64,000 nucleotides of DNA from Podarcis vaucheri (Eukaryota): assembly GCA_965113315.1 (NCBI GenBank), contig OZ220369.1. One strand, given 5' to 3'. The position numbers were made by a program, and so were the translations under genes. Positions within the stretch are counted from its first letter, which is position 1; the number at the start of each line of letters is the position of its first letter. Below, one piece after another: positions 5,757 through 60,624 of the stretch. The notes below the pieces were generated by a model that did not search any database, was not told where the DNA came from, and was given only the letters and a program-made list of their open reading frames with translations.

Positions 5757-6125
5757 AAAAAGGTAAAGCTAAAGGGCCCCTGACAGTTAAATCCAGTCGT
5801 GAACGACTCTGGGGTTGCGGTGCTCATCTCACTTTACTGGCCGAGGGAGCTGACGTTTGTCCAGAGACAGTTTTTCGGGTCATGTGGCCAGCATGACTAA
5901 GTCGCTTCTGGTGAAACCAGAGCAGCACACGGAAACGCCGTTTACCTTCCTGCCGGAGCGGTACCTATTTATCTACTTGCACTTTGACGTGCTTTCAAAC
6001 TGCTAGGTTGGCAGGAGCTGGGACCGAGCAACGGGAGCTCACCCCATTGCGGGAATCAAAACACCGACCTTCTGATCGGCAAGCCCTAGGCTCAGTGGTT
6101 TAGACCACAGTGCCACCCACGTCCC
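5757..6125 (-). mobile_element. Sauria SINE, full length
   Basis: (ACCTTT)-type tail, Sauria body, near-perfect TSD ttaaacactcgt (5745-5756) / ttaaacgctcat (6126-6137). Confidence 0.92.
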
Positions 6126-8751
6126 TTAAACGCTCATGGATTCCCCCAAATAATTCTAGAAGCTCTAGCTTGAGAGTTGTTAGGGGACCTATATTCTCCC
6201 TCACACAGCTACAATTCCCAGAGTGATTTAACAATCACTCCTCCCAGGGGAACTCTGGGAAATGTACCTCTGCGAGGGTCAGAGACAATATGCTTCTGAA
6301 TACCAGTTGTTGGGAATCACAAGTGGGGAGAGTGATATTGTTCCCTGCTTGTGGGCCTCCCATGTGGTTGGCAATGTGAAAATAGGATGCTAGACTAGAT
6401 AGGCCATTGCTCTGATCCAGAAGGGCTCTTCTCATGCTTTTATATTCTTAGGATAAGAGAGAGTCCCAGGAACCTTTGCATCACTACTTAAGAATACTTA
6501 CTTTGGTGTCCACAGTATGGGGAATGCATGGGACAGAAACAAGTGGCTTTGAGATTTTGAGGAAAACTATATTTAAAAAATCTGACATTTCACTTGGTTG
6601 GATTAAGCCCTGGTTGCCCTAATGGCCCAGCCTCAGCTGACTTTAATCAGGGAGTAGAAGAATTGAAGAGTGGAAATAACACAGTAAATAAAAATTCTAG
6701 AATTCAAAGAGGGCATTTCATCATATGAAATCACATTTCAAAGGCATCCTTTCAGTTATCTATGTAAACTAATAACTTGGGGGGGCCCTCAGCCACACAG
6801 GGGCCTAGTTTTGCCCAAACTGTGAGTATCTATAAAATCCACCACTGGGTAGAGGAGAGAAACAGAATGACGAGAATGAAGAAAGAAAAAAGAGAAGGGG
6901 CGGGGGGAGAGACTCAGAAAACGTAAGGAAGAAAAACGAATGTGCTAGAGTCCATTTAATGTCACAGCTACCATGGCTACATCACCACATTTGTCCATAA
7001 CATTATGGTATAATGATTTGCCAGGGTAATATTTAAGCTTACATCATAGCCAATATAATTTATAGAACTTGCTTTTTGCTTTCTAATGATGCTCTAATGT
7101 TAAATCCACATGGTTTTCATTCTATGTACAGAATCTGCAAGCATTTCTAAAAAGTCAAGGCCAGACATCATTTCCAGTAAAAATATATACCTTTCAGTGC
7201 TGTGGAACTTGATTTTGACATTTCGCATGTGGCAGCTAATGCCTGCAGTAAATTTTGATCACTGTTTCAAAAGCAGAAATCTGTCATCACATCTTAAGAT
7301 TGTCCAAATGCAAAAACCAGATGCCCAGTTCTCAAAGATATTTAGGCGGCAATCCTGTGCCCAGTTAGCTGGGAGTAGATCCCATTGAACTGAATGGAGT
7401 TGACACCTGGATAGACATTGTGCTGTTCATGGTTATGCAATCCCCCCCCCAAAAAAAACCCACTCTATAAAAGAAAGGTACTTCTTAAAGTTATAATGAC
7501 TTTTATCTTAGGCCATAGACTTCATTTCAACCTAAAGCTTTTAATTTACTGTGGGTAATGAAAGTAGGACAGGAAGAGTTGCCTATAGACTCTAGAAACC
7601 TTAATGCTTAATGTGTTTTTTATTGTAACCCCACCCTCTGTCAAGTCCCGGACACTACTCTTTGAATAATCAGAAGTAAGGAAACATCCTCAAATAGGTG
7701 TTTTGTTTTTTGTAAAAAAAAAAAATTAAAAGATTTTCATGAAATACAAAAGAACGAGCAATCTCTCTCTCTTTTTTGTTCAGATTACAGTATAAAGTCT
7801 TTTGGTTACGTTCAGTGCAAGACAATATGGTATCCAGAGGTAGGAGGAGAGAGCAGAAGGGACAGGGTGGGTGATAAACTTACACACCTTTTTTTTTTTT
7901 TTTTGGTCTTTCCATCCTTGCACACAGACCATGTTAATCTTCCCTACTACATTCCAATGTTCATATATGCACTGCCAAAGCGAGTACTCAGAAGAGTACT
8001 CAGAAGATGGCAAAACAAAGGCAGCCCAGGAGGAGAAGAAGAAAGTTCTTCTGGGGGTTCTTGCGATGGATGACCTCATTCCAAATTGAGCTGGGGAGAG
8101 TGTGTCCTTCACTACTAGCCATTCGCAAAGCAGGGGAATGCATTGTATTTTATCCTACGGCCTTTATCAATGTTTCTCTGTTCTGTTTGAGAATCACACA
8201 AGGAGAAGAGATTCGTGGCTCTGAATATGGGTCATCAGCCTTCTGCACATCATTTAATCCAGCACAGCTAGCGAAAAAATGGTCGTGCATTCCCATACTC
8301 ATTTTTAGAGCCAGATATTTTAAAACAAACCCTTGACATATTGAGAGCTGGCACTTGAAGTTAGTCAGGCCTTAGCCCTTTCCCATCCTTCTATTGAATA
8401 TTCTGCCGCTAAATGTGAAAGGTGTGGAGACTTCCTTTAGAAATAACTTTGTTTGAGTAGAAAGCAGTAAGAGTCGAACAAAAGATGTATTGACTGAGCA
8501 GAGAGCGTTTGCCCTTCTGGGTCTCAAGAGGGGTGGGGTTACAAATGAAGTGAAATACAATCTTTGTGTTAAATTCTTACAATGATTTTTCCATATCAAA
8601 GATTCCATCTGAATAAATTTAGTGCTGGGGTGTGTGTGGAATAACACTTTTTTTAAAAAAAGAGCAGCTGAAATTGCTTTAGTACTGCAACATCCCTCAG
8701 TACCTCTAAGAATAATTTCCTGAATTTTTCCAAGTGCTTCCTATTGCAATA

Positions 8752-8992
8752 CAGTGGTACCTCGGGTTACATACGCTTCAGGTTACATACAGTTCAGGTT
8801 ACAGGCTCCGCTAACCCAGAAATAGTGCTTCAGGTTAAGAACTTTGCTTCAGGATAAGAACAGAAATCGGGCTCCGGCGGTGCGGCGGCAGCAGGAGGCC
8901 CCATTAGCTAAAGTGGTCTTCAGGTTAAGAACAGTTTCAGGTTAAGAACAGACCTCCGGAACGAATTAAGTACTTAACCTGAGGTACCACTG
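8752..8992. mobile_element. TA-target Tc1/mariner (pogo/Tigger-like) MITE
   Basis: TIR CAGTGGTACCTC(G/A)GGTTA, TA on both sides, internal TTCAGGTTA repeats; five close copies in the window. Confidence 0.9.
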
Positions 8993-10574
8993 TACAAAGG
9001 GAGCGATTTGTACAGGGTGATGGGGATTCCTTTGCACTAATTATTTGCATTGATTAACAGGGAGAAGTTGAAGCTGTGGGGATGAACTGTTTTCAAGTAA
9101 GTCCTGGCAGACCTTAGCAAAACCATTTCAGCCCACCATTTCTTTTAAACATTTCTAAACTGCTCCTCATCTAAATGAATCACAGAATGAAGACCATGAT
9201 TAACTCCAAAAACAAGACAATATAAAAATGTAGGGTGGTATTCAGCATTAGTCCTACGCCAAGTAGATCCATAAATATTAATAACTATTAGGTTCATTAA
9301 TTTCAGTGGGTCAACTCTAAGTAGGAGTTATTTAAACTTGTTTAAATTGTTAGGCAGCACATACACATAAACACACACAGCTAAAACCAAAAAGCTAATC
9401 ACACAAAATATAACACATTTAAAAATGCCTGGGCAGATGAAAAGTTTTATTCTGGTGGCAAAAATGCTGTAATGTCCACACACCCAGAAAGAAGACTCAA
9501 GAAGCAAGGAAGGGATAGAAAATGATAGATTTATGAAAAATATCAAATAGAACATCTGCAACATGATTAGCCAAGTTCAGAAAGTTTGGGCAGCTGAGGT
9601 TCTATATGAATCCGGCTGGAATACATCCCTCCAGTCCTCTGGGCATGTTTCTAGCTGCAGCATGTGACTGACTTCCCAGCCAAGGAGTGGCAGACTCTCC
9701 AAGAATCCCTAATTTTCAGGGACAGTCCCAGATTTGCAGGAGCTATCCAAGATTCTGATTTGCAAACTGAGACAGGAGCTGCTCCAATCAGCCTTGTGTG
9801 GGAGGGGCTTATCCTCTATATCCCTGACTCTGTGTGATTTGCTGTTCAGAGGTCCCAAAGAAAGCAGATTTCCTGAGGGAGGGTCCTGTCAGTGCACTGT
9901 GCAGGAAAACCCAGGGACAAGCAAGAGGGCTGGCTTTTCACCACTCCTCTCTCTTCCCCTAAGCAGCGCTCCCTTGCACCAGTCACACTGTCCTAGATCT
10001 GCCTCTGCAGGAACCACAGCTAAAGAATCCCTGACGATTGGCCATTAAACTTCTGTCGAAAAACTATAATGAGCAGACTGCCACTTTCCAGTCAATGCAT
10101 GGGGTTGGTTACGTGTGTGTGTGTGTTTCAGCAAAACATGCTAAGATTCTCAGGGGACTAAATCCTTTTCAAGATACCATGACTGGCTGGCATGGAATCG
10201 GGCTCAGTAGGCAGAATAGCCCTCTTATTTCCCACATGCATGTGGAAGGTGCATCACTGTGATTTCCAGTGGCTGGGGAATGAAGCTTCGACTTTGCACG
10301 GCCGCTTATCTCTCTGCTATGAGCAGCAAATGCTAAGCAAATCAGCAAACTAGATGTGAAACTCTTGGATTTGCATAATTTATACAGACACACCATTTGA
10401 ATGTTTAGTGTGCCGAAGAGTGGGCTGCCTAGGTGAGACATTATTTCCGGCCTCACAGAAATGGTAGGATATACACCGACAAAACAAGGAGACCCAGCTA
10501 TCTCACTTCATGCAGAGTGCTCCAAACTGCTTTCCATTCTACTTTGCATCCTTTAACATAGCTTGTCATTGTCA

Positions 10575-19469: not shown

Positions 19470-19640
19470 CAAAGATCTTTGGTAGAGCATCTACTTTGTA
19501 TACAGAAGGTCCCATTTCATTCCCCGGCATCTCTAGGTAGGCCTGGAAAAGTCTTCTCCTCTGACAGTTAGGATAGACAATACTGAGCTAGATGGACCAA
19601 TTGTCTGGCTCAATACAGGACAGCTTATTGCGTTCCTATG
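19470..19640 (+). mobile_element. tRNA-derived SINE, decayed
   Basis: TGGTAGAGCAT...CCCGGCATCTC...GAGCTAGATGGACCAAT, same family as 35489. Confidence 0.65.
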
Positions 19641-26100: not shown

Positions 26101-26656
26101 ATGCTCAGAGGTTCACACAAGTGTGCAGTATTTTTAAGCTTCCTGTGCAAGTATTCCTCAAACACCAGAGTAATGACTGTCCCCGGGTAGTTTCCCATCC
26201 ATCTGTTGAGATTATAAGTCCAGGAACAGAATAAATGCTCCTGTCATTAATGTTAGGCTTATACATGAAAAAGTTAGATCAGTTTCCAGTTCTCAGAGGT
26301 GGTTTACATAAATGTAAACTGCATTAAAAATTCTTTGTTGCCCTACCTTTTAAAATAATTATTCTATTCTGCTGAATGCAAAGGATGCAAAAAAAGGTCA
26401 AATAAAATGATCAGGGAGTAGAAGCATTTTCCCTAGAAGCACAGATGAAATCATTTGGATCTTTTTAGCTTAGAAAAAAATAAAACCTCAAAGGGATGGA
26501 AGTCTGGAGAAAGTGGGGAGAGTTTTTCTCCTTCTCCCAAGTAGACTTGGGAGGGTCATCCAATGAAATTGATTAGCAATAGATTAACATCTGATATATA
26601 TTTGCACAGAATTTATTGGATTCATTTCCACAAGATGTGATAATAGTTTAGCTATA

Positions 26657-26882
26657 CAGTGGTACCTCAGGTTATATACGCTTCAGGTTACAGACTCCGC
26701 TAACCCAGAAATAGTACCTCAGGTTAAGAACTTTGCTTCAGGATGAGAACAGAAATCGTGTTCTGGCTGCGCGGCGGCAGCAGGAGGCCCCATTATCTAA
26801 AGTGGTGCTTCAGGTTAAGAACAGTTTCAGGTTAAGTACGGACCTCCGGAACGAATTAAGTACTTAACCCGAGGTACCACTG
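26657..26882. mobile_element. Same TA-target MITE family, inserted in a decayed CR1 fragment
   Basis: TA-CAGTGGTACCTC...GAGGTACCACTG-TA. Confidence 0.9.
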
Positions 26883-27436
26883 TATTTAAAAAGAAAAGAA
26901 AAGAAATTCATGGAGAAGAGGCATATCAATGGCTTTTACTTATTGTGGGGAAGTATCTGATTAGCACATGTGGGAACCAGAATGTTGGGTAACATGAGCC
27001 TTTGTTCTGATCCAACAAGACTCTTATCGTGTGGTTCACTTCCAGATTTTTCTAAAATTCATTCATTTGTTTCTTTGTATATTTAATTTGTATGCCACGC
27101 TTCATCCAAAGATCTTAAAGCAGTTCACAGCATAAAAACACAGAATAAAACCACAATGTACATAATAAAAACAAGAACAACACAAAACAATAATCATTCT
27201 AGAGAAATGTTGATACGCTTTTAGGGGTGTGCAAAAGGAAAAGAATCAAAACAGGCTACTTGGAATGGATTCAGGGTTTGTCCAAGCAAAAGTGGACTAT
27301 TTCTGAAGCACCCCAAAACAGTGACCTCCAAAGTACTTCGAAGTCCTTTGATAACTGGGATGTTTTAAAAAAAACAACCCGTTTCTCCTGAAACTTGCCT
27401 TGTAAGGAAGGTACAGTTACAGTAGCACATATAGGG

Positions 27437-31340: not shown

Positions 31341-32631
31341 AAAAGGTAAAGGTGCCCCTGACTGTTAGGTCCAGTCGCGGATGACTCTGGGGTTGCGCGC
31401 TCATCATACTCTGTATGCCAAGGGAGCCGGTGTTTGTCCGCAGACAGCTTCCGGGTCATGTGGCCAGCATATCTAAGCTGCTTCTGGCAAACCAGAGCAG
31501 CGCACGGAAATGCCGTTTACCTTCCCACCGGAGCGGTACATATTTATCTACTCGCACTTTGAGGTGCTTTCGAACTGCTAGGTGGGCAGGAGCTGGGACT
31601 GAACAACGGGAGCGCACCCTGTCGCGAAGATTTGAACCACCAAACTTCTGATTGGCAAGCCCTAGGCTCTGTGGTTTAGACCAGTGTTTCCCAACCGGTG
31701 TTCCGCGGCACACAAGTGTGCTGTGAGATGTTGCCTGGTGTGCCGCGAGATGTTGCCTGGAGGGAGGCGGGCGAGGGCATTTGCTTCCCGGAGGACTTGT
31801 GGGAAGCCGCCCCTTCCCTGGGCGACGCGCCGCCTCGCGACTCCGGAGTCAGTCCCGAGGGCTCTCGGAGGGACTCGCGAGCGACGGCGCGGCGGCTCCG
31901 GGGCGCGCTCAGCCGGGCCGCCGCGCGCCCCCGCTGCAGCTGCCCGGCGTGGAGCGCGACGCGGAGCCGGCCGGGCTTGGAGGCGCCCAGGTAGGGCCGA
32001 GCCGGGCGGGGGCAGGGAGGTCTCTGTCTGCTGCGGGCGCAGGAGGGCGAGCGGGAGAGGGGGAGCCGTCGGGTCTCCTGGAAGGAAGCGAGGCGGTGGC
32101 TGAGGGGGATGCAGCCCCGTCCCAAGCAACAGGCGCTCCTCGAAGTGAGGCCACAAGTCGGGGCTCGGACAGGGCCTGGAAGCAGCGGCTCCGGCTCTTG
32201 GGAGCGGAGAAGGGGACTTCGAAAGCGGCCTGGAGGAGAAAAGCCCCGATGCAGCGAGAGCGGGGAGCGTGCTGCCTTGTCCAGGCCTCCTCGCTTTGTG
32301 CCGTCCGCTGCCGGGAGCAGGACACGGGGGCTCCTCGTTCGCATGCTTTCCCGGATGATCGGTGAGGGTTAGGGTTAGGGTTAGGGTCCCTCAGTCCCTT
32401 GCTTTGCTGCCTCCTCCCCCCCACCCCCAAAGCTTGGAGGTTCCCTGGCAAGGGGGAGGGAAAAAAATTGAAAACTTTCACTTTCGTGCGTCCCTCCCGG
32501 CGTGACGCTGCGCGCTGACGTCACGGGGCTGTAATGGTGGTGTGCCGCGAGATTTTTTTCATCAAACAAGTGTGCCTTTGCCCAAAAAAGGTTGGGAAAC
32601 ACTGGTTTAGACCACAGCACCAACCGCATCC
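31341..32631 (-). mobile_element. Sauria SINE split by a hAT insertion
   Basis: SINE body 31341-31681 and 32605-32631; TSD ctgtattgcttactta (31325-40, 32632-47). Confidence 0.92.
31682..32604. mobile_element. 923-bp non-autonomous hAT (Charlie-like) element with CpG-rich interior
   Basis: 15-bp TIR CAGTGTTTCCCAACC / GGTTGGGAAACACTG; perfect TSD gtttagac (31674-81, 32605-12); subterminal GTGTGCCGCGAGA motifs. Confidence 0.95.
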
Positions 32632-34244
32632 CTGTATTGCTTACTTACAATAGCCTAAAGCAAACAACAACAACAGAACTCAGTACAAAAAAAAACCTGT
32701 TATAATTATAAAATCAGAATTCAGTTAAATGCTGGCTGGAATTTTTTAAAAAAAATATACTCCAGTATGCACTGGAAGTTCAACAGGGAGAAAACCTGTT
32801 TTGCCTCAACTGGCAGGGAGTTCCATAAAATCAGGTCCACAATATGGAATGTGCAGTGCCTGGTTAATACAAGACTTGCATCTGAGCCATGGGGGACCAC
32901 AAACAGTGACTCATGTGAAGACCTCAATGACTGAGCGGGGATAGAATAATGTACTTTTAAGGGAAATTGCCCCAAACGGCCAACCTGAGTTTCCATACAT
33001 TTTTAGCAATTTCCATCCAGATACTACTTTGACTACACTGTTCCATATATGTCTGGAAAATTTTGACATTCGGCAACCCTAGGATAGTGGAACCTTTGGC
33101 CTTCTGTATGTTGTTGAACTACAAGGTCCGCCAGCCATAGAATGAATGGCCAATGGCCAGGGAAATTGGGAGTTGTAGTTCAGCAACATCTGAAGGGCCA
33201 AAGGTCCCCCACACTCGTAATAATGGACATAATCTATAAAGGCGTTAGGGAATGTCAAGATGATACATGCAATATTTAGTACTTGGTGGAATCACAGGAT
33301 GTGTGGACTCTACATGGCTCTGATGTGAAAACCCACTTTGGAAAAGTAGTTCCAGGCAGCAGCATTAAGCTAGATCATAAACCACAAATCAGCAACATTT
33401 GCGCACACAAGAATTTTACCTATTTTTCACCAGCCAAACAGCAAAGCTGCCTCCAAAGCTGCTGCAATATACCAAATTCCATGTGAATGCCCCACTGAAG
33501 CAAGACTATTATTAAGAATCTGTTTTACATTAGTAGCAGGATCTCCAACCCACTTACATTTTTCTCCTGCTGAGCTGACAACCTCCATCAACACCGGCCT
33601 GTCTGCACATCTAACATCAGGAAACACCTAACATAGCTATAATAAATTCAAGCCTTTAGACTCCATCCTGCCCAGCGGCATATAAATCAGATTCAAACTT
33701 TTGAACTGTGTTTATTTTTTCACCAGGGGGAAAAAACCCCTCCTCTTATTTGTTCAGATATGCAATGACTGACCAAATTGAAATACTAGAAAAATACAGC
33801 CTGCTTTGAAGAGAGTCCAGCATAAGGCACTGAAACATATCTGGCTATTACTAAGAAAATGGATACACATCTCAGGAATTTGTACCAATGATTTTAAATT
33901 AAATATGATTTGCTTTCTAAGCATGGGATCTAAGAGTTTATTGTTCCATTCTTGGAGGAACACAGGAGAAATATTTTTTGCCACAGTGCAGCAAAAATGG
34001 GAGGCATCTAGCAAGAGTTGTTCCATAGTGTCTGCCCCTAAATAACAGAATGACAAAATGTTTAAATGAAAGCTGCAGACGAGAGGAGGACATCTGTGCC
34101 TCAGTAAAAATAGTACAACAGACCAGTCATCAAAAATATCTGGAGGGTTCCCATCAACCACAGCTGAGGCTGATGCAGGTTGTAGTCCAAAGTGTCTGGA
34201 GGGCACCAGATTGGTAAATGGGATCATCTTAATAGATGGTCCTG

Positions 34245-34959
34245 GTTGCGGGCAGGCTCTCAACCTGGTTCCCCCCACCCAGGGCTATTGCCCAATCATG
34301 TCAAAGGGTGATAGTGGGGGGAAGTATAAAAGCAACAGCGCGACATGTGCATGCCTCCTGCTTCGCGCTGCTGAAGACCCGCCCACCCTCCCTTTAATTT
34401 AGATCCTTTGGCCTTGCTTTGGACTTTGGTTGGTAGCCTGGCTTGAGTCAGGGACCAGGTAAATTTGTCCATTTGGCAAACTGGCATGGGCCACTTGGTT
34501 TTTGCCTACCTCTTAGCAATCGTCACAGCTTTGTAAGGTTTGGCGGTTAGGCATTGGCTTATGGTGAATGCGGGAGGGGAGGTCGACCATCACCTGCCCC
34601 TCCAGTTTCAAGGGTATTCCGTTAAAGGAAGCCGGGGCCTGGTTTCTGTCTGAAGTCCACTTGAAGGGTGAGGGTCATGCCAGGCCTCCGGGAACACCGG
34701 GGGAGATGCAGGTGGGTTCCCCCGAAGCAATTTCCCTTTGGGTGGTTTACCCTTACAGACTCCCTGCAAAGGGGACAGGAGTCAGATATAGTCTTGCCAA
34801 TGCCTAAGCCAATACCGCTCTCATTCCTGTAATCAATAAAGCTGTGGCCAAATTGTTGCCCTTAAACAAAACCTTAAAAAACCTTAAACAAAATATCCGT
34901 GTCCATGTGAATTTATTTATCCTAACGGGGGGGTCGGCTTGAGGGTCTTGCCATGCAAA
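34245..34959 (+). mobile_element. Structured LTR-like dispersed repeat, copy 1 (possibly a solo terminal repeat of a DIRS/Ngaro tyrosine-recombinase retroelement)
   Basis: Colinear conserved blocks with 37256-38057; TATAAAA ~34325; AATAAAGCTGTGGCC ~34835; self-complementary ends; no TSD. Confidence 0.6.
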
Positions 34960-35177
34960 GGCTGCAACAGACATTTTCCAACATGCACACGGTTTGAGGC
35001 TTTTTAATAGGGAAGTTTATGTTTATATCTGTCCGGTGATCAGTTGACTGAAAGCTAGACAAATTTATATCCAATTAAGGTCTACTCACAGTAAACCCAT
35101 TGACAGTAATGAGCATGACTAACTTGGCCCCATTAATTCCTGAACAAGAATAGCATTGGCTGCCATCCAAAAGCTCA

Positions 35178-35298
35178 GCCAAGACTCTTAATTTCAGGGC
35201 AGTGGGTTCGAGACCCACGTTAGGCAAAAGGTTCCTGCATTGCAAGATCCACATGGTCCCTTCGAACACTACAGTTCTCTGATTCTCTGATTCTCTGA
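35178..35298 (+). mobile_element. tRNA-Lys-derived short SINE with CR1-type tail
   Basis: AGACTCTTAAT..CAGGG..GTGGGTTCGAGACCCACGTT (tRNA-Lys 3' half) then GGTCCCTTC..AC..TAC and (ATTCTCTG)n tail. Confidence 0.75.
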
Positions 35299-35359
35299 CC
35301 CTCCCACACATCGGTTGTAGGAACAGATGGAGCTCAAATGGGAAATGGACAAAACTGAC

Positions 35360-35425
35360 TACAAGTGGAGAATGTTCAATGCATAAAACAATACAAGTGG
35401 AGAATGTTCAATGCATAAAACAATA
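35360..35425. repeat. Perfect 32-bp tandem duplication
   Basis: tacaagtggagaatgttcaatgcataaaacaa x2. Confidence 0.95.
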
Positions 35426-35488
35426 TAGCAACAGGCCATTGCAGTCTTCAAATGCCACCTATGGGGAGTAAAACAGATGTGCCTTAAA

Positions 35489-35673
35489 GGGGAAGGGCCA
35501 TAGCTCAGTGGTAGAGCACATGTTTTGCATGCAAAATGGCCCAGGTTCAATTCCTGGCATCTCCAGGAAGGGTTAGGAGAAATTCATGAACCCCTGGAAT
35601 GCCTCTGACACTTACTGTTGACTATACTAGGTAAGATGGACCAATGGTCTGACTCAGTAGAAAGCAGATTCCT
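35489..35673 (+). mobile_element. tRNA(Ala/Cys-like)-derived SINE
   Basis: A box TAGCTCAGTGG, B box GGTTCAATTCC, then GATGGACCAATGGTCTGACTCAGT body shared with other copies. Confidence 0.8.
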
Positions 35674-37255
35674 ACAATACTATCAAACACTTTGAATAAC
35701 TAATTTGGAAACTGTACAATGAGAGGAGGGGGAATTTAATGTGGTGTCACACAAGTTGCGATTTAAACATAGAACATAAGATAACTGCGGCTGCTGTGAT
35801 TCTGAACTTTTTTTTAAAAAAAAAAGCTATATGAAAAGGCATATTCAAAGATTTTCCTGCCGTTCTGAATCACTGTGTCATGTACTCTCCCGAGGATTCT
35901 GCACCGTACAAGGTGGAACCTCTTTAAAAATGGCGTCAGCGTTATAGCATGAGACGCCAGGTAATTTGTAATTGCAAGTGACTTAGAAAAGTCACAGGGG
36001 ACTTTATCCAATTCAGTAATTATTCCTTTCTACTGAGCCCTGGTCTTTCACTGTTTCAGATCAGTAGGGGTTGGCCTTGTAGATAATACTTTGCGGTAAC
36101 TTAATTATATCAGATTCAATTCCTGATAAAGGCGCTGTCTTATGCTTTCAAACAGGGACATTGCAAATACACAAACAATTATAAAAAAGTTACATTATTA
36201 GATTGAGAAGTTATTAGGTTCCCACCACCTCTATTTATGCAGGAATCCTATAACTGTGTATTTTAAGTAAGCCCCTCTGAAATCAGCGGGACTTTGCTGC
36301 ATAGGTATGTATAGAATTGCACGGTTGATCAGAAATGTGGTGAATTAGAGACTGCTCGTGAAAAGATTTGCATGTGCTCTTTTGAAATCAAGTAGGGCTG
36401 TTGGTTTTAATTCCTCTCATTAAGCATTTGTTTTCATTTCATTTCAGCCAGTCATCCTTATCAGCTGAGTCCATTACCATTTGATACCCAAACCAGAGGA
36501 GTTTTTGTTTTATTTTTAAATCTGCATTCTGTCAAGATCCAGTTGCTTCTAATTTATTGCAATGAACCCTGGGCAACAAGATCCTCAAGGTTTCCTCTCC
36601 TAATGCACACCACCTGGTTTCTGTTAGGCTTAAGGTAGACAAGGACATTAGGTCATGTCACTCTGCACGTTGTAAAAACAACCATTTTAGAAGGTGGCAG
36701 ACTTGCATGTGAAGTGAAACAAAAGCTTCCACTGTGCCTTGACACCCTAGAAGTTCCACAGGGTTTCAATTAAATACAGATTGAATAAATAGGTATTCCT
36801 GTGACTTGGGTTTTAACTTCTCTCTTTCTTCATCATGCCATGAAAAATTCCAGGACTGGAGGAGGGGGATAAACTCTTTTTTTTTTTTAAGAGAAAGAAT
36901 GAGAAACCTTTCTGTATGGACCCAGGAGACAAGAAGCCAAAAATATAGCTGGTTATGTCAAATCAGCATAAAATACGTATGCCAGAGAATTTGAAAGATC
37001 AGTAGCAAGCCTAAAAAATATATATAAAACTATTACGGATGGACAGGTGTCACTCTGTTTCCTATTTATGTCCATTTTGCATAGCTTGTTCATTCCATCC
37101 TCTTTCTGCATTAATCTGCTTTTTTTTTTAAAAAAAAAAAAAGGAATTTCATATGAAAGTTTGTATTTATAATTATTTTATCTCAAGGGACACATTTCCA
37201 GGCCTTCTTTACCCTGAAAAACACATAGTGTGTTCTCCAATAAATGAGAGCACGT

Positions 37256-38057
37256 GTTGCGGTGTGGGCCACTGGGCCAGCCCTCTTGTTGCCAGGCAGG
37301 TTAATAGTTGTTGCCTGGCATTGTGATTGGATAACCGGGTTGCTGGGGGAAATTGTATGTTGCAAATTGGGTGGGTGGGACCATAGTCTTTAAATATTGG
37401 TGCACTCTGGTTTCTCTTTCTCTTTGCAGAGTGCATCGGATCACCCGCCCGCCCTCTTTTCCGGTTGACCTTGCTTTGCCTGTCATGGGGTCGTCTGCCT
37501 TGGCACAGGGGCCTAGTAGGAATTTTGCCATTTGGTGATTGGCTGGGCCATTTGGTTTTTGCCTACTACTCAGCAATTTGTCACAACTTGTAAGCTTGCG
37601 GTTAGGCATTGGTTATAATATGCTGGTGGTGGAGGGGTCAGGATACGCTGTGCCTGCCCCTCCTATTGCGCTGAAGGGAATTCCGTTAAAGGAATCCTGG
37701 GGCTTGCCATGATTTCATCCTATCCCTGTCATGGGATCAGGGCCGTCCAATCCCTGTCATGGGACCAGGGCCAGCAAGCCTTCGGGGAGCTGCTGGGGTG
37801 AGCGGCGTGGGTCTGACGCTTAGCTCAAATGACCCCCAAGTTTGACTTTCCCTTCTACTGGTTACTGATCAGACCTCGGGATGTCAGTTCTGTCCCGGGC
37901 GGGGGGACAGATAGTCATAACCAATGTCTAAACAACCACTCACTGATTTTGTATTTTAATAAAGTTGTGGCCAAAATAGTGCCCAAAAACCAAAACTAAA
38001 ATTACGTGTTATGTGTGAAGTTATTTGAGGGGTGGCCTGGGGACCTACACACGCAAC
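37256..38057 (+). mobile_element. Structured LTR-like dispersed repeat, copy 2
   Basis: GTTGCG...CGCAAC ends, AATAAAGTTGTGGCC ~37958, blocks shared with copy 1; no TSD. Confidence 0.6.
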
Positions 38058-45620: not shown

Positions 45621-46286
45621 CCCTAGAACAACTCCATCCATCTCCCCTTGCTGGTCCTTAAAACTGAAACTGCAGACATGTCACCAGCTTCTATCTTTTT
45701 TTTAAGGTCACTACCAGGAAAATAACCATAGCATGACATAATAGGCATGTCACAGCAGAGGAAAGTCTTCCCAAGTTCCAGGGTTAAAGGATGCTATCAC
45801 CAAATCTGTATCATTCTGTGTTGTCAGAAGTAGACAAGGGAGCTGACCGGGAGTAGGCATCAGCTGCTGAAGAATCCATGAAGTCTCCCCCTCCTGCTGC
45901 AATTAACTCTCCTCCCCCCTGGTTTCCCAGAACACAGAGAGAAATGGAGAGGGTGGAGCAATGAGAGACAAAATGATGGAGCCTAGGACTGCAGGGATGC
46001 ATCACATTAGCAGCTTGAAACACAGTGGGGTCATTTCCCCCACAATGCATTTCAAGCTGTGTTTGTATGATGTTGTTCACATCAGAGTAAGGGCAGATAA
46101 TTATTCAGCCAATGCACATAATGTTTTGGGTTTTTCTGACCCTGGACACACACACACTCATGTGCCTCCACGCTCATCTGCACATGCAGATGACCTGTCA
46201 GGACATTTTCACATCACTGTACTCCACATCTGGTTTTCTGGTCACTCTGAAGCGGCTTTGAGAAAAGAATGTGTCAGAAAGCAGTA

Positions 46287-46519
46287 CAGTGGTACCACGG
46301 GTTAAGTACTTAATTCGTTCTGGAGGTCCATTCTTAACCTGAAACTGTTCTTAACCTGAAGCACCACTTTAGCCTCCCGCTGCCGCCGCACCGCCGGAGC
46401 ACGATTTCTGTTCTCATCCTGAAGCAAAGTTCTTAACCCGAAGTACTATTTCTGGCTTAGCGAAGTATGTAACCTGAAGTGTCTGTAACCTGAAGCGTAT
46501 GTAACCCGAGGTACCACTG
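46287..46519. mobile_element. Same TA-target MITE family (opposite orientation)
   Basis: TA-CAGTGGTACC...GGTACCACTG-TA. Confidence 0.9.
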
Positions 46520-47729
46520 TATTTGTTAGGATTGATATGGAGTGTGGCTACATGTGAACACAGCTTAGAAAACCAGCAGCAGGAGGACACTGGATGTGGA
46601 GAAAACAGTAATGTGAACATACCTTAAAACTCACAAGCCTATTCATGTCGACTCAGAAGTAAGCCCCACAGAGTTAAATGGAAGTAAATGTACATAAGAC
46701 TTCACCTTTAATAAAAAGGTTTCATTGTCTTACAGCATGCTAAGAGAAAAGAAAATACATCAGCAGTGCCCAAGGTCGGCACAGGATAATGAAAGGTTTG
46801 CAGTGGCCAAAGATAATCAGCCACGGGGTGCTTTCAAGCTTGCTGTGTATTTTACCTCTAACTTACATTTTATTGAATGCATTTTTCAAGTGCTGTGTTT
46901 CTAACTGATCCTGTTGGGAGGAGGAGATGGACTGGCTATAAGCTTAACTACTACTACCACTACTTTTTAAAATTGAGGTTTAGAAATATTTACCCAAGTA
47001 ATTATAGCAAATTGGTACATAGAAGGGTTAGTCTCCTTTCATTTTGCTTGGAGGGCTTGGCTGAATTTGGGTCAGTGTTTTAGCCAAATCCTTCAAGGAA
47101 AATTAAAGCTGCAAGAGGTTTTTTTTATTATTGGGGGGTGGTGGTTAAGAATTGTAGCAAGGGGGCTTCTTTCTTTCTCCTGCTTTTCTCCAGCTTTTCT
47201 ATAATTTCGCTTCCTTTTTAATTCTTGCTAGAACTGGCTGGTTTAGTGTGTTATGTGTGTGTTTTCAGGAATAATTTCAAGAAAAGGAAGAAAATAGAAA
47301 AGAAAGGTAATAAGCTCCCCACAAAAACACAATAGTACAATCCATTTCCCAGAAAAGGGAATTGAAAATGCCCCTCTCCCAAGTCACCCCCTGCAAATGG
47401 GGTGGCAAATGGATGGCTAGCTGTTTCAGCCAACCCCAAACATTCTCCCTAATTGATTCCTCAGCTGTCTTTCTTGATATGAGGGGCAACCACCCAGAGA
47501 CTGTGTGCCAGTGAAGGGTGTGGCTAAAGTGGGTGTGGACACCAGCCTCTTAATCTTCCATTCCAGCCAGCTAAAATCACTAGAGGATGATGCAGAGCAA
47601 TGCCAACAAGAGATTTGGCATGGGTAGAGTCATGAAAGCCAGATAGAGAGGCCTGGTAGGCTGCAATCAGCCCACAGACTTAAGGGTCCCCATCCTAGTT
47701 TATATAGACAACCGTCTCCAATATTGTCC

Positions 47730-54600: not shown

Positions 54601-54729
54601 AGGAGACATAGGTGGGAGCTGAGTGGGAAGCAAAGGTGGACAAACTACCCCAGAAGAAGCATGGCATGTCCCCCACCAGAGATACCACCCCTCTCTTAAC
54701 ATCCCATACACAACAAACAAACACACATA

Positions 54730-54943
54730 CAGTGGTACCTCGGGTCACAAACGCTTTAGGTTACAGACTCTGCTAACCCAGAAGTAGCACCTCGGGTTAA
54801 GAACTTTACTTCAGGATGAGAACAAAATCGCTCGGCAGCAGCGGGAGGCCCCATTAGATAAAGTGGTTCCTCAGGTTAAGAACAGTTTCAGGTTAAGAAC
54901 GGACCTCCAGAATGAATTAAGTTCTTAACCAGAGGTACCACTG
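54730..54943. mobile_element. Same TA-target MITE family
   Basis: TA-CAGTGGTACCTC...GAGGTACCACTG-TA. Confidence 0.9.
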
Positions 54944-56999
54944 TATAATTAATTACAAAACATTTTACTGGGTGGACATTGAGATGTATAATGTAGAGTA
55001 TTTTTGGTCAGAACTCCAGCAGAATGGAAACAGCGCTGCATGCATCAAACCAAGGGCAGAATATATACCAATATTTCCTTACATCTCTACACAGATTGCT
55101 ACTGCTTGAGGTGGGGGGTTTTCCATTCATATAATTTCATTTCATTTCATTAAATTTATATTCCACCCTTCCTCTCAAAGGAGTCTGGGTAGCCCAACAT
55201 AGCAGCCATCCCAAATAAATGGCATTTTGCTCATTTACCTCGCCATTTGCTTGGAATCACAGCTACTAGTTCCATACAGGTAGAATATCTATTCACAAAA
55301 GAATAATGGCAATTCTTTTTCACGAGACACTTTAAAACCCTCCTGCTGTGCCATCGATAAAGGCGTGAAAAGCTTCTCTATGGGGAGATATTGTAAAACA
55401 ACCCTTTATGTATGATTATAACGCAGATTAATGCTGTGCATTAATCCAGGTTCAGGCGCTTGCTGTTTGCGAGAGCACTCTGCGGTTTGCCAAACAACCA
55501 GTCATAAATGCTACTGCTCAATATTACTCCCAATGACATTTGAGCAATATCCTCCTCCTGCTTTCTTTCATAGCCCTTTAGGAATTTGTCCTGCTTCATT
55601 GTATAACGGCCTTGGAGAGCAGGAAATTAGAGGTGGGAATACAAAAAGAACAAAGTAATCCTGCTTGCGGTGTCAAATTAGAAGATACAGTGCAGTGAAA
55701 GAATGCCACGTCCTCCTCCCCCCTCCACCCCCTCCCAACTCAGACACTACAGTTGTTAATCCAGTACAGAAAGAATAGAAATCACTCTTAGGGGTTGGTG
55801 TGTTTACCAAACAGCTACTTTCAAAGCCCCTTTAGTAGGGACAAGCAATTCCCTGTTCTCCAAGAACAGCCTAATGCATAATGCATAAGGTTATGGGGAG
55901 GGGGGGAGTGTATTCACGAGGGTGGCTTGGCTTCCATCAAAAAGAGAACAGTGAGAAATTATGATAGAACAATTTTCATTTCTGCCACATTGTTTTTATA
56001 GTACATTCATGCCTGGGAATTGGAGGCTTTGGAGTCTGGTCTGCTGTAGCTGTTGTGGGGCCTGTCGCTATTTTCTCGCTGACAGTGACACTAAAAACAA
56101 CAGCACCCCAAAACAAAAACAAACAAAAACACACACGCCCGGAGATAGTTGTGGAATGCAAGTTGAATCCCTGCCTGTCCACTTTTGCTGTGTTACAAAA
56201 GAAAGAAAGAAACAGTTTAGGGAATGTTGTGGGGGGGGGGTGGAGCAAATACATTCTGCAGCTGGCATAGGATGGTGTCAACAGAATTGGAGCTTCATGG
56301 TCCCCTATTGAAGAACCTCACATTGTGTATGATGATGTGTGATGATGCGGCTGAGCAGTGGCAAAGGCAGGTAGAAAGCAAGGAAAGCTTTAGTAAACCT
56401 GCCAAGTAAATATTTCTAAAAGAATCCTTGGCCATCTCTTAATAATTTTCTGTGAACATATTGAGAATAAACAAATAAAAGGAAGTGCGGTCTTTTTTCC
56501 CATTTCCATTTCATATTTTTTTTACAAATTATCTCCCCTAGTGGCTTTCATCTGATCAAACATTGGAGTCTTCTTAACAGCTGGCTTCATTTTCTCCTTT
56601 ACCTGTAAGAGCAAAGGCATGGTAAAATCAGCAGCATATTGGAATTCCCTGGTACAATTAGCAAGCAAAAAGACTTTGTGTAATGTATAGGCTGTTTGTT
56701 TTTTATGGAAATTAGAGGGATAGATTGTACAAACAACATCAAGTGTCTCTTATCTTTGGGTAAGCCATTAGACCTGCAATCCTACGTGCACCTACTCAGG
56801 AGGAAGACCCATTTGGATGTAGCCGGGATGCTTCAGAGTAGAAATGCTTATGTAACCCACGCTGTTATTCTTATTATTAAGGGCAGGAGAATACACTGCA
56901 AAACCAATAGAAGGTCTATTCAGCTGACCTTTCATCCTCTTTTCCCCACACTACTGGAGTACTATACTGGAGTATAGTAGTGATGTATGTACTGGAGTA

Positions 57000-57431: not shown

Positions 57432-58904
57432 ACTGGAGTACACCTAGTAACCTGCTTTTCAGGGGAAATTCCAGAAAGTCAGTTTGAAAGATGAGGCAGA
57501 GGGGCTGTTCCACAGGAGTTTGGATGAGACCTGGGTGTTGTTTTGAGCCTGTTTTCAGCCACTGCAGTTTCTCCAGGTTCCATGTTGTGTGATGCAGCAG
57601 AGAATGCTTGAAAGGAAATGTAAACTTTATCTTTATCAGAACATGTGCTTTGAATGTTGAAATCTCTTGAACTGTTACTTCTTCAAAGTGTTTTTCTTCT
57701 CTTTTGTCTAGTGGAGCCCCAGGGCTGCTAAAGATGCGGTATACCCTGCTTGATGTATATTCAGTGAGTAATAATTATATATACAGTAGAAACATATATT
57801 TAGTTTATAAATTATTTGCTGCTGGTGTTTTCTTCATTAGATAGGCTAGCGCAAGCACGGATGGAGGGACCACTTTGCAGATCAGACTGAACCTGCAAAC
57901 TGCTGGTGATTTGTGGCTACATATAGGATTGCATTGAGTGGAGAGCAAGTTGACTAAAGATAGTTGTAAACCTACTGTCTGTTTCAGGGTGTTCCGGACA
58001 TCTAGGTTAAACCATGATAAATTAATTTTCAGACATTGTACCAAACCAGCCAGCTGAGAGAGTTTGAAAATGCTATTCTCAGCAGTTTCCATGCACTTCG
58101 TGCTAGGATCTTCGTGACAAATTCATCAAACTATTTTCATTTCACTTCTCAGCCCAAAAGCTGCAGGCATCTCCTCTTGACCCTACCAATCAGGATCTTG
58201 GGCTAGTGTGTCATCAGGATTCACTAATATTAATTTCCTCACTGAATGATAAGGGAAAGAATGCTAAGATTTTGTCTAGTATATTAAGAGTACACTAGAA
58301 CAAGATTGTAAAAGTAAGTTGCAAGGAATAACAAAGTACTAGAATGGTTCATGAGGCATAATAGATTAATTCATAATTATATAGAAATCCAAAGAAACTA
58401 AAGATACCTTAATTAAAGATCTAGTAATTTGCCACAGCTATACACAACATTACAGTCATTAAACATCAGGAGTGGTGAACCAGAAACAAACTCAAGTGTT
58501 GTATGATTGCACACTGTGTCCAATCTAATTTTTCAGCTAATTTTAGTAGCTCATGAGATGTTTAGCCAACTGAATACAGTTTGCTTTTGCTTGTTTCAAA
58601 TCATTTTGGATACCGCAGAGCCCTATGGTAAGGGAAACAATGGGATAAAATTGCAACCTAATTATCACTGGTTGTATGCTCTATAATGTACTTGTATAAA
58701 ATCAGGTGTGATGTAAAGATATTGTAATAGTCAGTTAATTCAGTGTTTCACTGCCGGGAAAAGCATGAGTTCTCCAACTTACAGCTTGTGTCTCATCTGT
58801 TTTGGCCTTGATAAACAGCTGTCCCTCCTCAGAAACTCTCTTTCTTTCTGGTTACATCCAGGAGCAGAACTGGTGACCACCTCCAGGCCAGAACAGGGGA
58901 ACTA

Positions 58905-59146
58905 CATTGGTACCCCAGGTTAAGAACTTAATTCGTTCCGGAGGTCCATTCTTAACCTGAAACTGTTCTTAACCTGAAGCACCACTTTAGCTAATGGGGC
59001 CTCCTGCTGCTGCCGTGCCGCCGGAGCCCGATTTCTGTTCTTATCCTGAAGCAAAGTATTTAACCTGAAGCACTATTTCTGGGTTAGCGGAGTGTGTAAC
59101 CCGAAGCGTATGTAACCTGAAGCGTATGTAACCCAAGGTACCACTG
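58905..59146. mobile_element. Same TA-target MITE family (opposite orientation)
   Basis: TA-CATTGGTACC...GGTACCACTG-TA. Confidence 0.88.
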
Positions 59147-60624
59147 TACTACCACACAGTTCTTCATGTGAGACAGCAGGCTTGATGGCAACTATAATGT
59201 CTCCCATTTCTTAGTGGTCATACAAATTACTTGTGGGGATGAGTTCCTCATTTTTTTTCCAGATCAGTTCTCCATATTTACGCATCAGTTTGCAATTAAA
59301 GAAGAAAAAAATTCTCATGTAAATTTATCTACTTTTTATTTCATTTTTTTCCTGTAACATTCTGTATGCACTTTTACCCAATATGATACATTTTTGTACA
59401 CTATATTCAATAATCTATGCATTTTTATGCCCATGTCTACATGACATATGTATTTTATGCATGTTGTTTCACTGAATACTTGCATTTCAAGATTTGGAGC
59501 ATTACAAATTTAGAAGGGTGGGCGTGCTTTGATTCACATCCAGTTTCAGAAAGTGAATTTGGTAAGTTCACCTTTAAAAGAGAAGTGAATTGGATTTCTC
59601 CCTCATTTCTAATAATAGCTGTGTATTTTATTTATTTATTCAGAAATGTACATGTTAAATATCTATTTTCTTCCATTTTAATTCTATTTTACATTCTGTA
59701 ATTTGGGATTCTTTATTTTACTTTAACGAAATTTATGTATTGCTAAATTGTGAAAAAATAACCACCTCTAAGCAGTCTGCTAAAATTTTAAAATTATCAA
59801 TCGAAACAGTAAAAAAGCAATTAAAACATTTTAAAATAATTGAAAATAATGGTAAAAGAAATTTAAATGTGCCAACATTTATGTGCTTGAATAAATATTT
59901 TCCTTCTTTTTCTATTCTCTCTCTCCCCCCCCCATTCCTTCTTTTTCTATTCCTTTTCCCCCATTCCCATCCCAATCCAATCAGCCCTAGGAGGAAAACC
60001 TGTACCCTGGATGTCTGAATACCAGCTTCCTTGCCTTTCAAAAGACGTTTCATGAGCATAGGCCCCTGAGGAAAGAAACAATGCCTTTTGGCGGATGTTT
60101 TACAAGGCTAGACTATTGCGAAAAGACACAATTCTGAAGGCTGGTCAGATTGTTTGCTCAATGGCTTGCTCACCTCATTTGGAAGGCTTTGGAAGGGGTT
60201 CCCTAGTGAACGGAGCTATGCAGACACTTACCTGCAGGCTTCTAAGAGATAAAGAAATTATCTCTACTGAGAGGAGCAGATGAGAACTTCAGTAAGGTCA
60301 GGTTAATACAGTAAGAGAACAGCAGAAAACTGAATTGTTTCTGATCAATGCAGGGCATATGCTGAGAAGACCAGAAAAAGCTGGGAGCTTAAAAGGACAT
60401 GAAGGCAGCTGTAATCTAACAGGCATTATTCAGGCTTTGTCCAACAAGAGGATCAGAATTCAGAAGTCATCTGATCTTGGAAACGTCAGGCTCCAGACAG
60501 ACAATCAAGTTCTGGAATTAGTGGAGAGAGAGAGGAGAAGTGAAAAAAGCAGCTGGATCATCCAAATCAGGTAGGAGTCCAATTCCAGAGTAGCAGAGGC
60601 CAGATGCAGCCACACAGAGGAAGC

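Follow-up and report, generated by a model that had tools for sequence, protein, structure and literature searches.

The window analysed here, a stretch of 64,000 nucleotides (nt) from contig OZ220369.1 of the Podarcis vaucheri genome assembly GCA_965113315.1, contains two related units on the (+) strand, which we call copy 1 and copy 2. Both are solo end-repeats of Ngaro-type tyrosine-recombinase (YR) retrotransposons, each composed of a repeat A, a spacer and a repeat B. They are separate insertions, not the two ends of one element, and no open reading frame (ORF) of at least 120 amino acids (aa) lies between them. Copies 1 and 2 belong to two subfamilies (w1 and w2, respectively) with a mean column identity of 73%; their parts are listed in Table 1. 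Most of repeat B is taken up by a domain with a predicted multi-branched fold, and comparison amongst very different subfamilies indicates that this fold is kept by compensatory changes. An earlier sequence-only reading of the window had proposed that the two copies are members of one element family with a conserved structured domain, and the covariation across subfamilies bears this out.

Identification of the Units as Ngaro End-Repeats

First-look searches of the 1.6-Gb genome returned dispersed candidates for both families, 3569 for that of copy 1 and 2788 for that of copy 2 (these figures are not copy numbers). The family ends are fixed, (A/T)AA on the left and CGCAA on the right, which are not the TG...CA ends of the solo long terminal repeat (LTR) of an endogenous retrovirus or Gypsy element with its 4-6 bp target duplication. 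For 44 solos, the target-site duplication measured 0-2 bp in 41 and at most 4 bp, and 38 of the 44 have AA at the 5′ edge. A CACG duplication considered for copy 2 was discarded: it is internal sequence, and its 5′ side is common to all 30 loci bar single changes. The 5′ flanks of the same 44 solos show a target preference, with a purine at -4 (41/44) and a pyrimidine at -3 (36/44), before the AA core.

The Phage_integrase search of the genome gave 65 matches, of which 30 loci were returned for examination. At 28 of these 30 YR loci, the B motifs occur 0.75-1 kb downstream of the recombinase match, and the order of motifs is permuted, i.e., the second half of the window unit precedes the first half. 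The full layout, A1-ORF1-reverse transcriptase (RT)-YR-hydrolase-B1-A2-spacer-B2, was recognised in 12 of 20 fetched regions, and two more carry B1 and B2 only. In full elements, A1 measures about 215 bp, B1 about 400-435 bp and the unique spacer about 165 bp, while ORF4, the hydrolase frame, specifies 203-213 aa. The Pfam domains RVT_1 and Phage_integrase were found above cut-off; the GDSL-like matches of ORF4 are weak (E 1e-4 to 0.03, below cut-off). The element ORFs gave no Dam methyltransferase match in Pfam at E 0.01-0.1, and for RNase H after the RT there was no Pfam match and one weak PDB match (E 0.12).

The link of copy 2 to Ngaro elements is direct, because two loci (L217 and L219) hold its A (96% identical) and its B (92%) around broken RT, YR and hydrolase remnants. 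For copy 1, the closest ORF-bearing relative found is L216, with 73% identity in B; the search for a full-length element of its own subfamily yielded none, this relative being its one pattern match. Exact-pattern counts in the genome amounted to 1146 spacer-B junctions and 822 ORF4-B junctions. On contig C1, a second listed B stands 0.4-1.3 kb upstream of only 25 of the 93 spacer-B sites, and most spacer-B sites therefore look like solos. Within solos, rare changes affect paired and unpaired sites alike (2.10 versus 1.88% and 0.90 versus 0.90%), as expected for neutral decay, and no editing or selection is seen in these rates. The window copies are probably dead remnants; since solos mutate equally at both kinds of site, selection acted in the active elements.

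Other arrangements also occur. Loci L098, L108, L109 and L110 have a single B after the ORFs (A1-ORFs-B type), the reciprocal product of solos; an excised A-spacer-B circle would carry a B|A junction and might reinsert. Three tandem B units, about 815 bp apart, stand at G000:C1:57898864-57900517. A large proportion of the older ORF4 matches falls on a single 41-Mb contig (G000:C41), as might be the case for a sex-limited chromosome.

The Fold of Repeat B and Its Conservation

The long-range stem noticed in the window, here called P1, consists of 12 Watson-Crick pairs in copy 1 and of 15 pairs, including one G.U, in copy 2, as read from the sequence. It encloses in both copies a GGAGGGG/CCCCTCC hairpin with unrelated loops (P2) and a TTCC-GTTAAA-GGAA hairpin (P4), and AATAAA lies downstream. 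The hairpin described as invariant is present in both copies, but its GTTAAA loop varies: it is exact in 38 of 66 representatives, while the pattern R-N-N-A-R-A fits 60 of them. A hairpin containing GGGACAG turned out not to be a common feature, because the two copies have different, non-homologous helices there: in copy 2, GGGACAG pairs with CTGTCCC to form P8, and in copy 1 it sits inside a GACTCC/GGAGTC hairpin, which matches helix P7 of other subfamilies. Copy 2 is longer than copy 1 partly because of a tandemly duplicated 28-nt module (37717-44 and 37745-72). Both domains fold better than dinucleotide shuffles, with z = -3.42 for copy 1 (0 of 200 shuffles as good) and z = -2.49 for copy 2 (2 of 100).

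From the genome, 347 domains were extracted and 66 representatives kept after removing 13 false starts. A repeating layout is predicted, of ~330 bases and occupying the 5′ three quarters of repeat B, in which P1 closes a multi-branch loop that holds P2 and the P3 junction, P7 and P8 being optional; the P3 junction carries P4 (with its hexaloop), P5 and P6. A UGUA-like word stands upstream of AAUAAA in 62 of the 66 representatives. In a sequence-only alignment (n = 31), P1 and P4 together are 99.2% paired, and the innermost pair of P1 is UA in 14, CG in nine and AU in seven cases. P4 and P5a together are 90.6% paired (n = 32).

Shuffles ignore relatedness; hence, we used tree-based nulls, in which each branch of the same tree keeps its substitutions but at randomly drawn sites, and the sequences are refolded. 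Compensatory events numbered 10.8 against 2.0 ± 1.6 in group A and 12.0 against 1.3 ± 1.2 in group C, and none of 150 nulls reached the observed value in either group. In strand swaps between subgroups, own strands pair better than those of the other subgroup both for P5a (-15.8 versus -10.4 kcal/mol) and for the flank helix of B1 (-28.6 versus -20.6 kcal/mol). The sequence of P5a is almost wholly replaced between subgroups with its pairing retained. Overall, the sense strand shows 107 G.U versus 52 A.C events, and the fold likely acts as RNA. Sixteen sources of the a-type and w2 families, left out when a covariance model was built, all scored higher with it than with a sequence-only model, a comparison that carries little weight as the score modes differ.

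For the domain, Rfam gave no match, and scans by E-value produced sub-threshold noise. No relatives from outside the source genome were found in metagenome contigs (by protein and by pattern) or in viral contigs.

The Boundary of Repeat B and Its Flanking Helices

The boundary of repeat B lies at the foot of the closing stem P1: in 38 of 39 distinct flank pairs, B1 and B2 begin to match 6-8 nt upstream of the P1 strand. Across 58 insertions, the B1 and B2 of one insertion are 99.8% identical on average, versus 97.3% to the nearest other element. In 46 elements, element-private variants common to B1 and B2 occur in all four B segments (18, 47, 11 and 32).

The segment after P1 pairs differently according to its position, with the end of ORF4 in B1 and with the spacer side in B2 and in solos. 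In the B1 context, the end of ORF4 and the segment before AAUAAA form a predicted covarying helix of about 12-27 bp, which covers UGUA and AAU in several c-type families. All B1 contexts have a small hairpin (GAGC/GCTC) 25-35 nt before B1, with a repeated TGGCGG-like word on its flanks; the B2 side resembles this pre-B1 sequence with the hairpin removed.

The Spacer, Helix Px and a U-Rich Loop

In B2 and in solos, the end of the spacer is predicted to pair with a word just 3′ of AAUAAA to form a helix, Px. Of 110 contexts, 80 retain both Px words intact; in copy 1, each of the two is altered. In the spacer, 26-32 nt before B, a U-rich internal loop between two stems resembles the expression and nuclear retention elements (ENEs) of other RNAs; this ENE-like layout occurs in 80 of 89 spacer contexts and in none of 108 B1 contexts, as expected since the spacer is unique. 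GG/CC pairs flank the loop on both sides, with AA and with G or CG intervening between them and the U runs, and the 3′ U run is at least 5 nt long in 56 of the 80. The loop is intact in copy 2 and damaged in copy 1, where two G of the lower stem are missing. When the whole spacer is included in the folds, probabilities above 0.5 are reached by P1 in 18 of 22, by Px in 16 of 22 and by the lower stem of the ENE-like loop in 17 of 21.

The spacer also has a conserved multi-branch fold of its own (34409-34525 and 37466-37583), whose closing stem competes with Px. P1 is not predicted in four B2 contexts (L092, L200, L206 and L043); in L092, the 5′ strand of P1 instead finds its partner in the spacer word GCCTAC, which may reflect switching between P1 and the U-rich loop during transcription.

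A Model for the 3′ End and Its Alternatives

On balance, we favour a model built on the predicted folds in which the B fold would be a 3′-end RNA signal on the sense strand that protects the tail and positions copying. Transcription would begin after the TATA in A1 and read through B1 at some rate, and the transcript would end about 20 nt past the AAUAAA in B2. In B2 and in solos, P1 is predicted to continue across AAUAAA, through P0, a short helix on the B2 side, and Px, as a rod that would bend the final ~370 bases back to the spacer, with the domain looped out and the poly(A) tail placed beside the U-rich ENE-like loop. The loop may then grip the tail as a triple helix, so that only RNAs ending at B2, or coming from a solo, would be stabilised. 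The conserved P3-P6 core and the GUUAAA loop may bind an element protein (Gag or RT), and the foot of P1 may fix the template switch of reverse transcription, which would keep B1 and B2 alike. For one sample of a related organism, two single-cell runs yielded 57-80 reads apiece, in both directions and without a pile-up at a start or an end, and are uninformative on start, end and poly(A) site; of the contigs, one stops at 37987, close to where cleavage is expected, although contigs cannot show ends.

Several results weigh against this interpretation. All sequences come from a single genome. Groups B and W, the latter containing the family of copy 1, do not rise above the tree nulls (reached by 5/30 and 3/30 nulls, respectively), and in the test of all pairs, with 6-10 effective sequences per group, no single canonical pair was significant in any of the four groups. 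The strand swaps did not discriminate for P2, P3, P5c and Px, and the excess of G.U is not significant on internal branches (24 versus 17). Px rests on invariance and one double change, with L017 and L011 changed on one side only; P1 loses to spacer sequence in four of the 22 folds; and the longest 5′ U run of the ENE-like loop is only 3-4 nt in 46 of 80. Gene conversion, instead of copying in each cycle, could explain the identity of B1 and B2.

We entertain tentatively a further version, in which the fold-back would be self-priming: reverse transcription of Ngaro would be primed by the tail caught in the U-rich loop or by the RNA end in its Px pairing, and the foot of P1 would fix the last template switch, by which B2 is copied anew from B1. 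If true, tyrosine-recombinase retrotransposons would have a tail-primed mechanism that needs no tRNA.

It is doubtful that the domain is, instead, a packaging or nuclear-export element that is independent of position and bound by Gag or an export factor, with the flank helices and the U-rich loop secondary. The most conserved interior (the loop of P4, and P5, with a GUCY/GGNC stem in 66/66) does resemble a protein-binding site and is present in B1 and B2 alike, but such a role explains neither the start of B at the foot of P1 nor the complementarity of both flanks to the segment that follows P1.

The helix at the end of ORF4 raises the possibility of a poly(A) switch, with the first AAUAAA, that of B1, masked by the end of the hydrolase frame so that transcription continues to B2. 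Judging from the layout, the B|A junction can be templated only if transcription passes through B1, and the position of the covarying helix before AAUAAA, over UGUA and AAU in several c-type families, would suit such masking. Of 18 families scored, just six show a higher cost of opening the hexamer in B1 compared with B2 (15 further chosen loci lacked a B1/B2 pair and were unscored), and we consider this switch unlikely.

It is quite improbable that the structure acts in single-stranded cDNA, as a substrate for end joining or for the recombinase. DIRS-1 amplifies via single-stranded cDNA, according to the available text of PMC7192593, and Watson-Crick stems fold on both strands (z-scores from 12 shuffles each), but the sense strand has about twice as many G.U as A.C events, wobble positions are conserved in P4 and Px, and the fold is located at the poly(A) signal.

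Among the roles suggested by the sequence-only reading, translation is unlikely, as neither B1 nor B2 is followed by an ORF, and catalysis finds no support. An unrecognised self-cleaving ribozyme that generates an RNA end would fit a multi-branch fold with conserved internal-loop bases, and other retroelements carry ribozymes in the sources available, but we give it very little credence: Rfam gave no match at gathering or E-value level, core patterns of hammerhead, hairpin and twister ribozymes occur in 0/66 sense strands and an HDV-like (hepatitis delta virus) one in 1/66, the peripheral helices are freely duplicated or lost, and a full canonical poly(A) signal is retained. Least probable of all is that the stems simply reflect G and C runs together with common descent, without structural selection. 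No single pair is significant, P2 is built of G/C runs, and paired and unpaired sites change at equal rates in solos, but the tree-aware nulls, which preserve composition and ancestry, were beaten 150 times out of 150 in two groups and P5a stays paired while its sequence changes almost entirely.

Features of the Two Copies and of the Window

Table 1. Parts of copies 1 and 2 and other features of the window.
Feature	Position	Strand	Basis or remark
Copy 1, solo A-spacer-B unit, Ngaro-type, subfamily w1	34216..34958	+	Same ends in most of 30 loci; order permuted versus YR elements
Copy 1, repeat A	34216..34377	+	3′ edge placed by spacer-start motif, by analogy with full elements
Copy 1, signals of repeat A	TATAAAA 34325-31; hairpin 34336-70	+	Sequence
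Copy 1, spacer S	34378..34540	+	Contains ENE-like loop (34457-510, damaged) and Px 5′ strand
Copy 1, repeat B	34541..34958	+	Match to B1 begins at unit position 326
Copy 1, structured domain	34547..34807	+	Folding versus shuffles; covariation
Copy 1, P1; P2; P3; P4	34547-58/34796-807; 34573-603; 34610-16/34748-54; 34617-30	+	
Copy 1, P5; P6; P7	34634-86; about 34690-747; 34758-83	+	
Copy 1, TGTA, AATAAA (34835-40), Px 3′ strand	34828..34848	+	
Copy 1, Px (predicted)	34522-30 with 34840-48	+	Both sides differ from family
Copy 2, solo A-spacer-B unit, subfamily w2	37225..38056	+	L217 and L219 carry its A and B
Copy 2, repeat A	37227..37443	+	TATA-like word 37388-96; hairpin 37399-437
Copy 2, spacer S	37444..37595	+	Intact ENE-like U-rich internal loop 37515-67; Px 5′ strand 37580-88
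Copy 2, repeat B	37596..38056	+	Match to B1
Copy 2, structured domain	37602..37931	+	Folding versus shuffles
Copy 2, P1; P2; P3; P4	37602-16/37917-31; 37631-63; 37674-80/37848-55; 37681-94	+	
Copy 2, P5; P6	37699-780; about 37783-847	+	P5 with 28-nt duplication
Copy 2, P7; P8	about 37859-88; 37890-910	+	P7 damaged
Copy 2, TGTA, AATAAA (37958-63), Px 3′ strand	37950..37971	+	
Open frame of 623 aa	15941-17812	+	RVT_1 E 1.5e-15; weak GIY-YIG match
U6 small nuclear RNA match	7882-7987	-	Barely over gathering score; probably pseudogene
tRNA-like match, between copies 1 and 2	35494-35565	+	Probably head of tRNA-derived SINE; 84-nt relatives at 19547 and 44930
Dispersed repeats	8746-8995, 26651-26885, 54724-54946, 46281-46521, 58903-59148		
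Dispersed repeats, separate set	5771-6107, 31349-31683		

At the 3′ end of repeat A, just after the TATA, the sequences of the hairpin differ between the two copies and the pairing is kept; a hairpin is present there in most of 14 families, not in all. If transcription starts in its loop, the hairpin forms only in A2 and could guide the first template jump.

Elsewhere in the window, the 623-aa frame presumably belongs to a Penelope-type element, and the dispersed repeat families resemble a DNA-transposon miniature inverted-repeat transposable element and a short interspersed nuclear element (SINE). In the Rfam scan of the 64 kb, the U6 and tRNA-like matches were the only ones, and both lie outside copies 1 and 2.

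Comparison with Known Systems

Retroviral R/U5 and other RNA ends that recruit RT are structured repeats with a poly(A) signal, made identical in each replication. Repeat B is likewise a structured repeat containing the poly(A) signal; unlike R/U5, it comes without TG...CA ends or a target duplication, and both of its copies are at the 3′ end.

The nearest described elements are those of Ngaro (order DIRS) of the amphibian type with an SGNH hydrolase ORF (10.1101/2021.08.05.455354; PMC3783388). As far as the available text of these sources goes, the elements described here share with them the A1-ORFs-B1-A2-B2 layout, RT and YR, a fourth, hydrolase-like ORF and the absence of a methyltransferase match. 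They differ in the length of B, which is about 370-435 bp here and 152 bp in DIRS-53_XT, and in the unique spacer of about 165 bp between A2 and B2. The term “secondary structure” is absent from the available text of both sources, and the titles and abstract openings of the papers listed by the literature searches contain no description of RNA structure in Ngaro repeats or of an ENE in DIRS elements. The elements are of a known kind, with a real RNA architecture at the 3′ end that apparently has been undescribed so far.

Isolated A+B units without ORFs have precedents in the solo AB repeats of Cafeteria Ngaro (PMC8547959) and in SIRE, which equals the A2+B2 of VIPER with a short unique middle (PMC6681497). 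For both, the available text proposes an origin by recombination and leaves their own mobility open. The solos described here, at about 750-830 bp, differ from these in having promoter-like and poly(A) signals and in being structured over most of their length. For annotation, over a thousand such units in the genome are best treated as Ngaro ends, not LTRs or RNA genes.

An ENE typically engages the poly(A) tail in about five U.A-U triples and protects it from deadenylation. Known ENEs include the single-domain one of the PAN RNA of Kaposi’s sarcoma-associated herpesvirus and those of transposons such as Evade/Copia93 (PMC7583470, PMC12501189). As these are described in the available text, the spacer loop is like them in its U-rich internal loop between two stems, its flanking G-C pairs and its location near the 3′ end of a retrotransposon RNA. 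Unlike them, it is placed in a spacer upstream of the structured domain, its 5′ U runs are often short, and about 350 nt of folded RNA would, in our model, be looped out by long-range stems between the loop and the tail.

The primer of DIRS-1 reverse transcription is stated to be unknown in the available text of PMC7192593. A fold that has its foot at the boundary of B and extends into the spacer bears on how reverse transcription starts in the order DIRS, and young intact copies in the genome, evident from the near-identity of B1 and B2, make an experimental test practical.

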